A stretch of DNA of 64,000 bases from Escherichia coli. Lineage in GTDB: Bacteria > Pseudomonadota > Gammaproteobacteria > Enterobacterales > Enterobacteriaceae. The notes under the pieces are model-generated. The model was not told the DNA's origin. It did no database searches and saw only the letters and a list, made by a program, of their open reading frames with translations. Position 1 is the stretch's first letter. Every line of letters starts with the position of its first letter. The stretch lies in the NCBI RefSeq assembly GCF_024298765.1, contig NZ_CP101210.1; one strand, written 5' to 3'. This document shows positions 22,292 through 28,943 of the stretch, piece by piece. The translations under genes and the position numbers were made by a program.

Positions 22292-24271
22292 TCAGGTGCC
22301 GATTATGCCGCCGTCGGCTTTTACGATAACGACAGTTGAGGAGCGCGGACGACCAGCCTTATCGCCGTCAGGCCAGCTTGATACTGCCGTCGGATGCTGC
22401 GGATCGCTAAGCCCTTCGCTTGGCTCGCCAGGGTGCTGGATGTTAATAAACAGCGTCCGGTTATCCGGAGTGAACGCGATGCCGGTGATTTCGCAGCCGC
22501 GCGGGCCGGTCAGGAAGCGGCGGAACTCATTGGTACCGGGGATCGTCGCCACCATCTGGTTGTTGCCCATGCCTTTGTAATCTTTACTATTGATGGTTGA
22601 TGACGACACGTCGGTCTGGATCCATAGCACGCCGCGGTGATCGAAGCTCAGGCCATCGGCGCTGCCGAATTCCGCCCCCTTCATGCTGCCTTTGGTTTCC
22701 GGTTTGTCCGTATCGGTGCGACCGCCCATCACAAGAATATCCCAGGCAAACTGCAGCGCGGTCGGGTCACCGTTATGCTCCAACCAGTGAATGATGTGGC
22801 CGTAAACGTTTTTGGCGCGCGGGTTGGCCGCATCCACTGGCGCTTTTCCTTCCTTACCGCGATCGCTGTTGTTGGTGAGCGTGCAGTAAACGCTGCCGGC
22901 GTGATATGGATCGACCGCAATCCACTCCGGGCGGTCCATTTTAGTGGCCCCCACGGCGTCTGCCGCCAGACGGGTTTTAATCAACAGGTCGCCCTGGTTT
23001 TCAAACCCTTTACTGGCGTCGAGCCCATTTTGTCCGAACACCAGCGGTAGCCACTCGCCTTTGCCGTCGTCGTTAAATTTCGCCACGTACAGAGTGCCTT
23101 TTTCCAGCAGGTGCATGTTGGCTTTGCGATCCTGCGGGTTGAATTTTCCTTCCGAGACAAATTTATATATGTATTCGAATTTCTGGTCATCGCCCATATA
23201 GACCACAACGCGGTTATCCGGGGCAATTGTCACCGCTGCGCCTTCGTGTTTGATGCGACCAAGCGCGGTGTGCTTGCGCGGCACTGAATGCGGATCGTAT
23301 GGATCGATTTCCACCACCCAGCCGAAGCGGTTCGGCTCGTTCGGCGTGGCGTCGACGCTGAACCTTTTATCCACTTCGTTCCAGCGGTAAGAGTCGTCGC
23401 TCCCGCTGATACCGTAACGTTTTTCCAGCGGGTTCATCTCTGCTTTTTTTACGAAAATATCGGACCAGTTCTCTTCACACGTCAGATAGGTGCCCCACGG
23501 CGTAAATCCGTTGGCACAGTTCTGCATGGTGCCGAGAATGATTTCGCCTTTCGGATCGTCAACTGTTTGCATCAGTGGGTTATGCAGCGCCGGACCGGTG
23601 ATTTTCATCGGCGTGTTAACGGTGATGCGGCGTGCGAAAGATGACGGGCGCACCACTTCCCAGCCCAGGGGCACTTTTTTTACTTCAATGACCGACACGC
23701 CCATCGCGTTCTGGCCTTTAAGAGCTTTATCGGCGCTCCAGTTGGCATCGCCATCTTTAAACAGTAGACCGTTATCGATGTATTCATGGTTTATGGCAAG
23801 CAGGCCGTGATCGGAGCTGTTCCCGCCCTGCGGCAGGCTAAACCACGCCATGCCGTCGTGGTGCATCCCGGCCTGCGCCGCCTGTTCTTCCGTGGTGTTG
23901 CTACCGTCGGTTTTAAAAACCGGCAGATTTCCGGCAATCCCGGTGGCGTCGCCCCATTTGTAGAAGGGCTTCGCGATGTATCCTTCCGGCACGATAACGG
24001 TATCTTCCGTGGAAACCGGCAGGCTGGTGAAACCGAGCGTCGTCGCTTTGCCGAGGTTACCGCTTGCTTTGGAGACCACTTTCGCCAGCGCGTTTTCCTG
24101 TTTCAGCAGAAATGGGAACGCTGCCGCGGCACCGGCGACCGTGCCTGCCTGTAACAGACGGCGGCGTGACAAATAGACTTCCGCCACCTGCGAAAACGCG
24201 CGGTTATCGCTCGGGTTACTGATTTCTTCACTATGCTCACGTTTGAATAAAGTTTTTAACGGTCTGCCCAT
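22292..24271 (-). CDS. phoX: Tat-secreted PhoX-family alkaline phosphatase (DUF839-like)
   Basis: 659-aa ORF; twin-arginine signal (SRRRLLQAGTVAGAAAAF); overall resemblance to PhoX family by memory. Confidence 0.6.
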   Translation of the reverse strand: MGRPLKTLFKREHSEEISNPSDNRAFSQVAEVYLSRRRLLQAGTVAGAAAAFPFLLKQENALAKVVSKASGNLGKATTLGFTSLPVSTEDTVIVPEGYIAKPFYKWGDATGIAGNLPVFKTDGSNTTEEQAAQAGMHHDGMAWFSLPQGGNSSDHGLLAINHEYIDNGLLFKDGDANWSADKALKGQNAMGVSVIEVKKVPLGWEVVRPSSFARRITVNTPMKITGPALHNPLMQTVDDPKGEIILGTMQNCANGFTPWGTYLTCEENWSDIFVKKAEMNPLEKRYGISGSDDSYRWNEVDKRFSVDATPNEPNRFGWVVEIDPYDPHSVPRKHTALGRIKHEGAAVTIAPDNRVVVYMGDDQKFEYIYKFVSEGKFNPQDRKANMHLLEKGTLYVAKFNDDGKGEWLPLVFGQNGLDASKGFENQGDLLIKTRLAADAVGATKMDRPEWIAVDPYHAGSVYCTLTNNSDRGKEGKAPVDAANPRAKNVYGHIIHWLEHNGDPTALQFAWDILVMGGRTDTDKPETKGSMKGAEFGSADGLSFDHRGVLWIQTDVSSSTINSKDYKGMGNNQMVATIPGTNEFRRFLTGPRGCEITGIAFTPDNRTLFINIQHPGEPSEGLSDPQHPTAVSSWPDGDKAGRPRSSTVVIVKADGGIIGT

Positions 24272-24693
24272 TGCGGTTTCCTTTCAAAAAATCGATTTCA
24301 AGGGGAATCATTTTTATGCACGTGAGTCTACGGAAAGATTGTTACGGAAATATAACAATTGTCATAAAAAACCGGCGATAAAATCATCTATGGTCGGGAC
24401 GCGGTTTCAGGTATGATGTGAGGCTAGAATTCTGAACGCTCTCTTTTGTTGAGCATATATGGACGTCCCAGATGAGGCAAGTACTGGTTCGATGCGGTTT
24501 GCGACCATATATCCGGCGTCGTTAGTAGGTTCAATGACCTGCGCCATGATGTTATCCGGGCCCTATTTCCTAATCACTACACCGGTATTTGATTACCCAG
24601 GTCAACTTCAGACTGTTACAGGGGCGGTAGCCGTTATCTCATCAGTGAATGTAAACTCAGTTAAAAATATTTTCTATAACTTACTGTTTTTCT

Positions 24694-24877
24694 TTAATTC
24701 ATCACAACGGCCTTCTGCATATTAAAATCAATACTATCGCTCAAAACACGCCAGATGATTCTTGTCAGCTTATTCGCCAGCGCACCAGTGGTTTTCAGGA
24801 ACCCTCGACGGGCTTCCATCCTTTGCAGACAAATACTCAGACTGTCAGTGAGCTTTTTCACACAGCGCATTACAGAC
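24694..24877 (-). pseudogene. possible IS110-family transposase C-terminal remnant
   Basis: Segment GALANKLTRIIWRVL resembles conserved C-terminal motif of IS110-family transposases; ORF N-terminus runs into IS911 end so it is chimeric. Confidence 0.3.
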
Positions 24878-25252
24878 TGAAATGGCACACTGAATTTGGT
24901 CACCTGAACAGAGGTGATATGCTCACCTCAGAACAAGACTGGTGCCCTAATGAAAAAAAGAAATTTTAGCGCAGAGTTTAAACGCTAATCCGCCCAACTG
25001 GTTGTTGACCAGAACTATACGGTGGCAGATGCCGCCAAAGCTATGGATATCGGCCTTTCCACAATGACAAGATGGGTCAAACAACTGCGTGATGAGCGTC
25101 AGGGCAAAACACTAAAAGCCTCTCCGATGACACCAGAACAAATCGAAATACGTGAGCTGAGGAAAAAGCTACAACGCATTGAAATGGAGAATGAAATATT
25201 AAAAAGGCTACTGCACTCTTGATGTCAGCCTCCCTGAACAGTTCTCTATAAT
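24878..25252 (+). mobile_element. IS911 (IS3 family) left end with orfA, frameshifted and truncated
   Basis: Terminal sequence tgaaatggcacactgaatttggtcacctgaacagaggtg; orfA product matches remembered IS911 OrfA (MKKRNFSAEFKR...[37 protein letters not shown]...) but has a TAA after codon 12 and a one-A deletion in the A6G slippery run; element is cut about 25252. Confidence 0.75.
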
Positions 25253-25361
25253 AGGGAAACTCAGGACACGTTATCCTTTGGTCACTCTCTGTGTAGTGGA
25301 TCGGTAATTCAGGACACCTCATTTTCACTGTTAATGTTAAAAAGTGAAAATGAGGTGATGC

Positions 25362-26161
25362 ATGATCAAAACTCGTCGGACTAAACGTACCTTTTCCCCG
25401 GAGTTCAAGCTTGAAGCTATCGAACAGGTGGTTAAATACCAGCGTGATGTCAGAGAAGTCGCGCTGGCACTCGAGCTCAACCCTGACCATTTGCGTAAAT
25501 AGATACGGTTGTATAAGCAGGAACTTCAGGGTATTGAGCCCGCTGGTAATGCTATTACTCCTGAACAACGCTAAATTAAGCAGCTTAAAGCGCAGATAAA
25601 GCGCCCTGAGATGGAAAAAGAAATACTAAAGCAGGCTGCCGTGCTGATGAGCGAAATCCCCGGGGAAACTGTCGCGCTAATCACACAGCTGAAAGCAAAG
25701 TGGCCAGTGCGGGTTCTTTGTCATTTATTCGGTATTCACCGTAGCATTTATTACGCGCAGGTGAAGCGTCCTGTTAATGTGCAAAGAATTGAATTACGAA
25801 GTCGGGTGAGGGCTGTCCATGCTCTCAGTCGTGGCGCAGTCGGTAGCCGGGCAATCAGTCAGATGTTGCGCCATAGTGGCGTTGATGCAGGCCGGTGGCT
25901 GGCACGACGACTGATGCGGGAATGCGGGCTGACAAGTCGACAGCCAGTTAAACATCACTACCGGGTAAACGAAGACAAAAGTCCGCCATTGCCAAATTTA
26001 CTGAACCGGCAATTTCACCCCGCCGCACCAAACCGCGTCTGGTGCGGCAACATCAGTTTTATTCGCCTGCAGGACAAATGGTGTTATCTCGCACTCGTTG
26101 TTGATTTATATTCACGGCGGATTATCGGTTCAGCCCTCTCATTAACCGCTGATGCTGAGTT
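25362..26161 (+). mobile_element. IS3-family element fragment (orfA with two in-frame stops; orfB truncated by IS66 insertion)
   Basis: orfA-like MIKTRRTKRTFSPEFKLEAIEQVVKYQRDV...LNPDHLRK*; orfB-like 25611..26165 (WPVRVLCHLFGIHRSIYY...) stops at the IS66-family terminus at 26162. Confidence 0.6.
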
Positions 26162-26198
26162 GTAAGCGTACAGCGAGGGCCGTATTGACGGGGATGTG

Positions 26199-27461
26199 TT
26201 ATTCAGCTGGCAGTGCTATGCGCCACGGAAGCAGTTCGCTGACCCGGTTGACCGGCCAGTCTGCTATGACGCCAAGCACATGGCGAAGGTAACTTTCTGG
26301 ATCCACGTCATTCAGTTTGCACGTCCCTATCAGGCTGTACAGTAGCGCTCCCCGCTCACCACCATGGCCAGAGCCGAAGAACAGGAAGTTTTTACGACCC
26401 AGACTTACCGCCCGCAGGGCATTTTCAGCGATGTTGTTGTCGATTTCCACCCAGCCATCGTTCGCATAGTACGTCAGTGCCGGCCACTGGTTAAGTGCGT
26501 ACGCGAACGCCTTCGCCAACTCTGAGTGTCGCGACAGGGTCTTCATCTTTTCACGCAACCAGCTTTCCAGGGATTTCAACAGCGGTTTCGTTTTTCGCTG
26601 ACGTTCAGCAAGCCGCTGCTCTGCCGGCATTCCCCTTATATCCGCCTCTATGGCGTACAACTGACCGATCTGCTCCAGGGCTTCTTCCGTCAGTGCTGAC
26701 GGGATGCGGACGTGCACATCGTGGATCTTTCGGCGGGCATGAGCCCAGCAGGCAGCTTCCGTTATCCCACCATTGCGATACAGCTCGTTGAACCCGGCGT
26801 ACGCATCCGCTTGCAGCACACCGCTGAAGCAAGCAAGATGAGTCTGCGGATGGATGCCTTTTCTGTCCGGGCTGTAAGCGAACCACACTGCAGGTGCCAA
26901 CGCTGACCCGGCATTGCGGTCATCACGAACATACGCCCACAACCGCCCGGTCTTCGTCTTCTTATTACCCGGCATCAGTACCTGGACCGGGGTATCATCG
27001 GCATGGAGTTTGCCGTCAGTCATGACATAGCCATGAAGCGCCTCTTCCAGCGGAGACAGCAGCCGGCAGCATGCATCCACCCAGCCCGACAGCAGTGAAC
27101 GGCTCAGCTCCACACCTTGCCGGCCGTATATTTCTGACTGGCGATACAGCGGGGTGTGCTCTGCATACTTCGAGGTCAGCACGCGGGCCAGCAGCCCCGG
27201 TCCGGCGATACCCCGCTCGATGGGCCGCGAAGGTGCAGGTGCCTGCACGATGGCATCGCACTGAGTACAGGCATGTTTTTCCCGTACCGTCCGGATAACC
27301 CGGAAGGCGCTACGCATCAACTCCAGCTGTTCGGCGGTATCCTCGCCCAGATAGCTCAGTGAACCGCCGCAGTTCGGGCAGCACGGCGCCGCAGGCAACA
27401 GTCGCTTTTCGTCACGGGGTAGTGATTCAGGGAACGGCTTACGGATGCGGGTCTGACGCAA
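26199..27461 (-). CDS. tnpC: IS66-family transposase TnpC (C-terminal 420 aa; N-terminal part in another frame)
   Basis: Zn-finger-like CCPNCGG...CTQC and DDE region; N-terminal leucine-zipper part is in ORF 27356..27736, implying a frameshift. Confidence 0.7.
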
Positions 27462-27736
27462 CGGACGCTGTACTGCGGGTCATACACCCTACCAGTCAGC
27501 GTATCGCTCTCTTTCTGAAGCCGGTTCAGATCGGCTTCCATTTGTGCGATACGGCGGGAGACTTTTTCGGAACGACTGCCGAAGTTCATCCGGCGGAGTT
27601 TATCCAGCTGCGCCTGCAGATGGTCTATTTCGCGCTCCCGGTTGCTCAGCTTTTCCTGCAGGGCGTGGATCAGCGCTTCCTGTTCGGCCAGGCGCTGTTT
27701 CAGCAGGAAGATGTCGTCAGAAGAGATGTCGTTCAT
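27356..27736 (-). pseudogene. IS66 TnpC N-terminal segment (frameshifted relative to the C-terminal part)
   Basis: 126-aa ORF with coiled-coil region (LLKQRLAEQEALIHALQEKLSNREREIDHLQAQLDKLRR); overlaps 26199..27461 in a different frame. Confidence 0.6.
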
Positions 27737-27785
27737 AAGCCCGTATTTTACCGGGCTTATTCTGTGACAACCAGGATAAAGAGAT

Positions 27786-28133
27786 TTACAGCATGGTCAG
27801 GGAGGTCAGCAGCCGCTTAGGCTGTCGCCAGTCGATACCTTCCAGCAGCATCGCCAGCTGCGCCTGTGTAAGGAACACTTTGCCATCACGGGCTGACGGC
27901 CAGGCGAAGCGCCCACGCTCCAGCCGTTTGGTCAGGAGGCACAGTCCGTCACCGGTGGACCACAGCAGTTTAACCTGACTGCCGCTGCGGCCCCGGAAAA
28001 TGAAAACATGGCCGGACATGGGATCGTCTTTCAGCGCCGTCTGTACTTTCGCAGCCAGGCCGTTGAAGCCATTTCTCATATCGGTGATACCGGCAACCAG
28101 CCAAATTTTGGTCCCGGAAGGTAACGGGATCAT
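27786..28133 (-). CDS. tnpB: IS66-family Orf2 (TnpB)
   Basis: 115-aa ORF MIPLPSGTKIWLVAGITDMRNGFNGLAAKV; canonical IS66 Orf2. Confidence 0.85.
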   Translation of the reverse strand: MIPLPSGTKIWLVAGITDMRNGFNGLAAKVQTALKDDPMSGHVFIFRGRSGSQVKLLWSTGDGLCLLTKRLERGRFAWPSARDGKVFLTQAQLAMLLEGIDWRQPKRLLTSLTML

Positions 28134-28531
28134 CGCTTCAGTTCCTGTATCAGCAGAGTCAGGAGCTTTTCGCTGACATTGCCATTGAAGCGGAGCGTCC
28201 CGTGCCGGAACGTTACCTCACAGCTGATACTGAGGGTTTCCGGGTCCTCTGCGAGCGATTCTGGCTGTTCGGCAGCTGCATCGAGAGTCACAGGAAGTAG
28301 CTGGGGGCTCTCTGAAGAAGGTAATATCAGCTTTCCCTCGCGCCATTGTTGTCGCCATTTGAACAACAGATTGGCGTTAATGCCATTTTCAAGAGCAAGT
28401 TTTGAGATGTATATCCCGGGTTCACAGGAGGCAGCAACGAGCTGCTGTTTAAATTCGGGAGGATAATTAGGGCAGCCTTTTCGCCTGCCGGGAGTCACAT
28501 TTTTCTGCATATCTGACACTTTGGTTCCCAC
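28130..28531 (-). CDS. tnpA: IS66-family Orf1 (TnpA)
   Basis: 133-aa ORF overlapping tnpB by 4 nt; typical IS66 Orf1. Confidence 0.8.
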   Translation of the reverse strand: MGTKVSDMQKNVTPGRRKGCPNYPPEFKQQLVAASCEPGIYISKLALENGINANLLFKWRQQWREGKLILPSSESPQLLPVTLDAAAEQPESLAEDPETLSISCEVTFRHGTLRFNGNVSEKLLTLLIQELKR

Positions 28532-28587
28532 TACTTATTTGAAGTGCGCCCCAATAGTTAGACACCAGATCTGTAACTGAGGAGCGT

Positions 28588-28943
28588 ATGAGCAAATTTT
28601 CATTAGAATTCAAAAGGGAAGTATCAGAAAAATACCTGGAAGGTGAGCTGAGTTTGAAGTCTGTTGGAAAAATGTACAATATTGACCCCAGCACGGTAAG
28701 GAAATGGGCTTATGTTTACCGTAAGCACGGATTAAAAACACTGACTGGGCAAAAAAGACGTTATGACGATAACTTCAGATTGAATGTGGTCAGAGATGTT
28801 ATTGATAATTCTCTTTCTATAAGGGAAGCTGCAGTGAAGTATGGGATCCCTGCTTTTAACACCATATCCAAATGGATTAAAAAATACAGTGAGGTTGATT
28901 TTTCGATGAAGGGACAAAAGGAAGATTTGAGGCCGAAAACTCC
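28588..28943 (+). pseudogene. HTH transposase-like OrfA gene, 3-prime end replaced by IS1
   Basis: 125-aa ORF with two HTH-like segments; last codons are encoded by the IS1 terminal repeat beginning at 28944. Confidence 0.5.

Follow-up and report, generated by a model that had tools for sequence, protein, structure and literature searches.

The window analysed here is a stretch of 64,000 nucleotides of Escherichia coli DNA (contig NZ_CP101210.1, one strand). It contains a tRNA-Phe genomic island beside dsbD and dicD, at about 13000-45000 of the window as placed from a matching record (L013, offset 4699). The cargo of the island comprises a tyrosine integrase, a large AAA-domain protein, two phosphoethanolamine transferases, a PhoX phosphatase with a Tat signal (22292-24271, minus strand), and a split S6-peptidase autotransporter. 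A cluster of broken insertion sequences sits on the same island, where several other IS3 and IS66 remnants were also observed, including one in which an AL1L pseudoknot is annotated.

Within the cluster lies a fragment that resembles IS911 of Shigella dysenteriae (IS3 family, IS3 group), both in its left end, TGAA.TGGCACACTGAATTTGG, and in the HTH_Tnp_1 match of its interrupted orfA. IS911 has been studied by Polard et al. 1991, Rettberg et al. 1999, and Prere et al. 2011. The features of the fragment and of its downstream neighbours are as follows.

24878..25291, plus strand: IS911-like 5′ fragment, equivalent to nucleotides 1-414 of the about 1250 of IS911 and 93.2% identical to them; the sole IS911-like piece in the window
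24878..24913, plus strand: left terminal inverted repeat (TGAAATGGCACACTGAATTTGG...), its start determined by alignment to the TG end of annotated IS911 copies, its 36-bp extent taken to be that of the IS911 repeat
24950..24988, plus strand: orfA from its start ATG at 24950 to a premature TAA at 24986-24988 (codon 13; GAA in IS911)
25022..25222, plus strand: residual 66-codon open reading frame with GTG start, from the list of open reading frames, covering the rest of the orfA helix-turn-helix and leucine-zipper region (Pfam HTH_Tnp_1, E 2.4e-05)
25186..25189, plus strand: GGAG, conserved Shine-Dalgarno-like upstream frameshift stimulator, identical to that of the reference cassette (role according to PMC4066793, PMC8136817)
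25198..25207, plus strand: ATT (AUU start of OrfB in IS911) and a slippery run of five A, then GG, in place of six A, then GG
25206..25277, plus strand: remnant of the downstream stem-loop stimulator, from ViennaRNA folds of the reference and window 72-mers
25290..25292, no strand: truncation junction, where IS911-like homology gives way to a second IS3-family fragment at its left end (TGTGTAGTGG...)
25290..26162, plus strand: second IS3-family fragment, with two stops in orfA and a G3-to-G4 insertion that joins the orfA tail to orfB; cut by ISEc8
26163..28509, minus strand: ISEc8 (IS66 family) copy truncating the second fragment; its right limit is an approximation based on where tnpA ends in AR_0085, the locus of which is near-identical

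The IS911-like fragment

Comparison of the full-length IS911 of BL21 with the whole window by blastn gave one HSP, which joined nucleotides 1-414 to 24878-25291. The left end starts with TG at 24878 (TGAAATGG...), and no right-end inverted repeat matching it was found in 24400-28900. Judged by this single match, orfB, the DDE (rve) domain and the right end of the IS911-like copy are absent from the entire window. Of the two TG...CA terminal repeats of an IS3-family element, the left one alone is present. Such elements are also flanked by direct target duplications of 3-4 bp; in this copy, the right end and the sequence next to it are deleted. The frame homologous to orfA is recognizable and is broken by the TAA at codon 13, a nonsense codon that the first-pass annotation had noticed and that is real; IS911 copies have GAA there. 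The residual frame beyond it matches HTH_Tnp_1 at profile positions 27-74 of 75, so that the N-terminal part of the domain is missing. Relative to IS911, orfA carries 3 synonymous and 6 non-synonymous differences, the nonsense codon included; with such small numbers, the substitutions appear to give no sign of purifying selection.

GGAG, the AUU codon, an A run followed by GGCUAC, and a downstream hairpin occupy positions homologous to those in IS911. The assignment of this stretch as the orfA end of an IS911-type element holds. The downstream stimulator has decayed in part. In its inner hairpin, a G-C pair has become U-A and pairing is intact, whereas three substitutions break the basal stem GCGCUCU/AGAGCGC, with the loss of 3 of 7 pairs. 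The free energies calculated by ViennaRNA were −21.9 kcal/mol for the reference and −17.8 kcal/mol for the window, and these values describe the 72 nt that were folded, the remaining structure being deleted in the window copy. In addition to the broken stem, the copy differs from IS911 in its identity of 93-94% over 414 bp, in having A5 rather than A6, in the TAA at codon 13, and in the loss of everything past nucleotide 414 (orfB/DDE and right end).

The identity of the fragment to every IS911 copy retrieved, from chromosomes as well as plasmids, lay within the same narrow range (93.2-94.0%). A search of 5,426 E. coli genomes and 72,556 plasmids gave no relative above about 94-95% other than 41 (to 48) records of the same locus, and the best plasmid relatives all spanned 415 nt, compared with 414 nt in the window. 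Isoforms in ISfinder practice share at least about 95% nucleotide identity. By this measure, the fragment is best regarded as IS911-like and not as IS911 sensu stricto. ISEc52, another IS3-family element, has the same architecture and an A6G site. With 88-89% identity, however, it is farther from the window copy than IS911 is, and its upstream stimulator reads GGAA, not GGAG. One decayed ISEc52-like copy (L011) has A5G.

At the junction, relatives of the second IS3-family element align from query position 21-23. This element reads CCCCGGGG at 25658-25665, where 95%-identical relatives read CCCCGGG. The insertion of one G in the orfA/orfB overlap creates a single frame (ORF 25611-26165); the element is dead regardless, with a TAG at 25500, a TAA at 25572, and the ISEc8 cut. 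An 18-nt inverted repeat, 94% complementary and with a 7-nt loop, was observed at 25315-25357, just 5′ of the ATG of the second element (25362), and its 3′ arm takes in the GAGGTG ribosome-binding site. In this it resembles the hairpins in leaders of insertion sequences by which transposase genes are protected against read-through expression. The cut by ISEc8, which lies on the opposite strand, falls at 26162/26163. In strains AR_0085 and 135, whose loci are near-identical, the tnpC gene of ISEc8 (26163-27700 in the window, minus strand) carries the annotation "frameshifted", and the tnpC-like frame in the window is split (26199-27461 and 27356-27736). An open reading frame at 24694-24903 (minus strand), which by eye seemed the tail of another transposase, was dropped when Pfam gave no match. 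Among the Rfam frameshift-element families, none was found in 24500-26500; the sole match was a chance microRNA (E 0.91).

The shortened slippery run and its effect on the reading frames

The site in the window reads ...GAATGAAATATT AAAAA GGCTACTGCAC..., with five A at 25201-25205, preceded by ATT at 25198-25200 and followed by GG at 25206-25207. The reference state was taken from the IS911 frameshift cassette used in reporter experiments, which reads GAAATATTAAAAAAGGCTACC / GAAATGGAGAATGAAATATTAAAAAAGGCTACCGCGCTC..., that is, ATT, six A, and GG (PMC8136817 Table 1). The comparison bears out the first-pass annotation, which had claimed that the run is one A short of A6G, and which had given the A_AAA_AAG heptamer of IS911 correctly. 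By the terms of that annotation, A5G in reference IS911 would have counted against the claim; the experimentally studied element carries A6G. The string ttaaaaagg that it quoted is present, at 25199-25207, one base to the right of the 25198-25206 assigned to it. In the orfA frame of the window copy, the heptamer A_AAA_AAG is absent, and A5G stands at 25201-25206 instead. The A6G state was found also in the copy on plasmid pO26_H19_2 (L004), a Mangrovibacter copy (L007), two MAG contigs (L008, L009), and an ISEc52 copy (L010).

The sequence A_AA.A_AA.G is among the most efficient −1 heptamers in E. coli (PMC4066793), and in IS911, −1 shifting is stimulated by the Shine-Dalgarno-like GGAG upstream and a stem-loop downstream (PMC4066793, PMC8136817). 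For IS911 constructs that lack the motif, a background of roughly 0.04% is reported (PMC4066793). In a working element, a ribosome translating orfA would slip back by one base at A_AAA_AAG with the aid of these two stimulators, and the OrfAB transposase would be produced. The orfA frame of IS911 reads UUA-AAA-AAG-GCU, and a −1 slip leads into the orfB frame, GGC-UAC-CGC. When the run is five A long, orfA becomes UUA-AAA-AGG-CUA-CUG-CAC-UCU-UGA and terminates early as ...EILKRLLHS*, the end of the residual open reading frame (25022..25222), which is put out of frame by the run. The former orfB frame is placed at +1, not −1, and a −1 slip would restore merely the old OrfA tail. Therefore, directly from the sequence, the canonical −1 route to the transposase is closed by A5G. 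In the window copy itself, this change is functionally silent, because translation stops at codon 13 and orfB is absent.

Distribution of A5G and A6G in E. coli

The two run lengths were counted in 5,426 E. coli genomes by exact-word megablast with queries of 32-33 nt, in which every 28-base seed spans the whole run; these words leave out ISEc52-type copies, which have GGAA instead of GGAG. A5G occurred at 1,070 places in 1,050 genomes, always on the chromosome and never on a plasmid, with a maximum of 3 per genome. A6G was found at 2,351 places (878 on plasmids) in 1,906 genomes, with a maximum of 13 per genome. No exact-word match was obtained in the census for A4G, nor for A7G, copies of which the BLAST low-complexity filter may hide. 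When one genome per species was searched for the pattern ATGGAGAATGAAATATTN{4,8}GGCTAC, 3 loci were found, all with A6, a number too small for a cross-species census.

A5G is not private to the window copy, because an IS911 that is fixed in K-12, BL21, and about a thousand genomes shares it. This resident copy lies at a different locus from that of the window copy, with the nanY-ythA genes on one side and a DUF2254 pseudogene on the other, and is 98.8-100% identical to IS911. It is single-copy, chromosomal, and vertically inherited in K-12, B, and about 1,000 other genomes. In BL21 it is full-length, and in K-12 it is cut by IS30 right after GGCTAC; the K-12 remnant is annotated as insN/insO. 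About 1,159 genomes matched the nanY-side flank together with the IS911 5′ end at ≥99% identity, a count with which the census fits in that most A5G copies appear to sit at the nanY site.

Two observations concern the sequence next to the run. The K-12 nanY copy (A5G; L005:2808-2850) and a MAG copy (A6G; L009, minus strand, about 9726) are 97.6% identical, and both are cut by IS30 between GGCTAC and TGTAGATTC, a few bases past the slippery run. This shared junction could reflect an IS30 hot spot or gene conversion. An IS911-like remnant of 82% identity in PS_131_S11 (L012:1202-1527) stops exactly where its A run ends.

The run-length lineage comparison covered 11 sequences, in which A5 was found in three lineages with A6 relatives: the window copy (93% to IS911), the nanY copy (98.8% to an A6G plasmid copy), and the ISEc52-like copy L011 (97.5% to the A6G copy L010), the last being one locus in two assemblies with identical match statistics. 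On parsimony, the loss from A6 to A5 would thus have arisen at least three times. Judging from the 7% divergence between them, and from the A6G copies that nest closer to the nanY copy, the A5 of the nanY copy is probably independent of that of the window. Parsimony over this handful of sequences also favours deletion from A6 over insertion into A5. For the window lineage, neither E. coli genomes nor plasmids yielded a close full-length relative (>95%), so that its ancestral run length is not observed directly.

By the census, A5G is a mark of copies that are immobile and vertically inherited. Their fixed chromosomal sites, their low copy number, and their absence from plasmids indicate that A5G copies do not transpose. 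In mutation-accumulation lines of E. coli B, IS911-mediated mutations were not detected (PMC5289635), and in Table 1 of a report on the long-term evolution experiment, IS911 has two ancestral copies and dashes alone for the evolved clones (PMC7881107). The support that these experiments lend to the immobility of A5G copies is weak, as REL606 reportedly carries two copies of IS911.

Annotation of full-length A5G copies

The full-length A5G copies in BL21 (L006:1771-2938, which is NZ_CP010816.1 4386619-4387786) and M2021-10044802/2-E (L003:1574-2741) are annotated by PGAP as coding sequences in two joined pieces, labelled "programmed frameshift" (WP_085948656.1). A near-identical copy with an extra deletion in a C run is labelled "frameshifted" by RefSeq/PGAP. 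The annotated span is 1,168 nt; with a −1 slip it would come to 1,169 nt, and 1,169 is not divisible by three. A span of 1,168 nt fits no join other than +1 (388 aa, ...ILKGYRAL...) or −2 (389 aa, ...ILKKGYRAL...). Of the two proteins, that of 389 aa is the widespread multispecies IS911 transposase, and that of 388 aa occurs once in public data. We infer that PGAP forced the standard 389-aa protein onto the A5G locus. On A5G copies, the label "programmed frameshift" is probably an artefact of annotation, with about a thousand genomes affected. As no −1 slip can decode this span, intact IS911 transposases will be overcounted when they are tallied automatically.

Discussion

We consider it highly probable that the stretch from 24878 to 25291 is the dead 5′ third of an IS911-like element, and that the loss of one A from its slippery run is ordinary, functionally silent decay of an insertion sequence. 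The missing A was likely lost by strand slippage in the homopolymer during replication. The copy carries at least three lesions, namely the A5 run, the nonsense codon 13, and the loss beyond nucleotide 414, the last probably brought about by insertion of another insertion sequence and then deletion. The first-pass annotation had called the copy doubly inactivated; both of its lesions are real, and the description is an understatement, as the decisive lesion is the truncation after nucleotide 414, which it did not mention.

Homopolymer indels are a common class of error in long-read assemblies, and elsewhere a one-base indel in a C run separates two assemblies of the nanY copy, so that a true state of six A might be suspected in the window as well. 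A 721-bp query that runs from the upstream flank through the IS911-like piece and across its junction into the next element, however, matched 41 complete E. coli genomes without gaps at 99.6-100% identity, among them strain 135 (NZ_CP080260.1, around 803.8-804.5 kb). The genomes came from chicken, cattle, human, and wastewater sources and from many, unrelated laboratories. Because 41 independent complete assemblies show the same run length, A5 is not an assembly error, and the exact A5G 32-mer is moreover present in 1,050 genomes. We therefore rejected a sequencing or assembly error, which is effectively refuted and to which we give next to no credence. The same conservation of the locus could be read as a sign that the stump is retained for a function, either as a shortened OrfA-like DNA-binding peptide started at the GTG at 25022 or through an outward promoter in the left end, and a 66-codon frame with an HTH_Tnp_1 match does persist there. 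Recent common descent of the clade explains the conservation in 41 genomes equally well, however. No Shine-Dalgarno sequence was seen by eye before the GTG at 25022, the residual frame has lost the N-terminal helix-turn-helix part and has a frameshifted tail, and the substitution pattern in orfA is non-conservative. A retained function is accordingly most improbable, if slightly less so than an error in the run.

It might also be proposed that A5G is no lesion at all, and is instead the native +1 recoding site of a distinct IS911-like lineage. In such a site, tRNA-Lys in the P site would slip from AAA to the AAA that overlaps it one base downstream, with the rare codon AGG standing in the A site, and GGC-UAC-CGC, the orfB frame, would follow. 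Several properties of the sequence agree with this route. The orfB frame lies exactly at +1 with A5G, the re-pairing from AAA to AAA is perfect, and the logic is that of the CUU-AGG-C site of Ty1. In E. coli, AAA_AGG in pspD is among the candidate +1 sites selected by FSscan, as listed in Table 1 of that study (PMC2790909). In the window lineage, a compensatory change has maintained the inner hairpin of the stimulator, and the copies in BL21 and M2021 carry the "programmed frameshift" label. This label is alignment-based, however, and its 1,168-nt span is at odds with a −1 shift and suggests the forced 389-aa protein. The stimulators of IS911 were characterised for −1 shifting. The census also speaks against a working +1 site, in that A5G copies are never on plasmids, number no more than three per genome, and hold essentially fixed loci, whereas A6G copies have spread. 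We therefore regard a native +1 site as very unlikely. A milder form concerns the resident full-length A5G copies alone (BL21 and the roughly 1,000 nanY genomes), in which a weak +1 site could release a trickle of OrfAB minus one lysine, an attenuation that the host tolerates; it is no more likely than the native site. The window copy is excluded from any +1 reading because it has no orfB, and with a stop at codon 13 of orfA the question is moot there.

Decay of the IS911-like element thus remains the preferred explanation. The A5 run of the window copy is routine decay among other broken insertion sequences, is explained by biology that is already known, and carries very small biological weight in itself. 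The comparison made around it has a wider use. The "IS911" of K-12 and B is A5G, unlike the experimentally studied A6G element, and is a misleading reference for the slippery site; a comparison with K-12 or B would therefore wrongly refute the one-base loss. For the family, the contrast between A5G (no plasmid copies, at most three per genome) and A6G (878 plasmid copies, up to 13 per genome) serves, at the level of populations, as a simple indication that mobility requires the sixth A.
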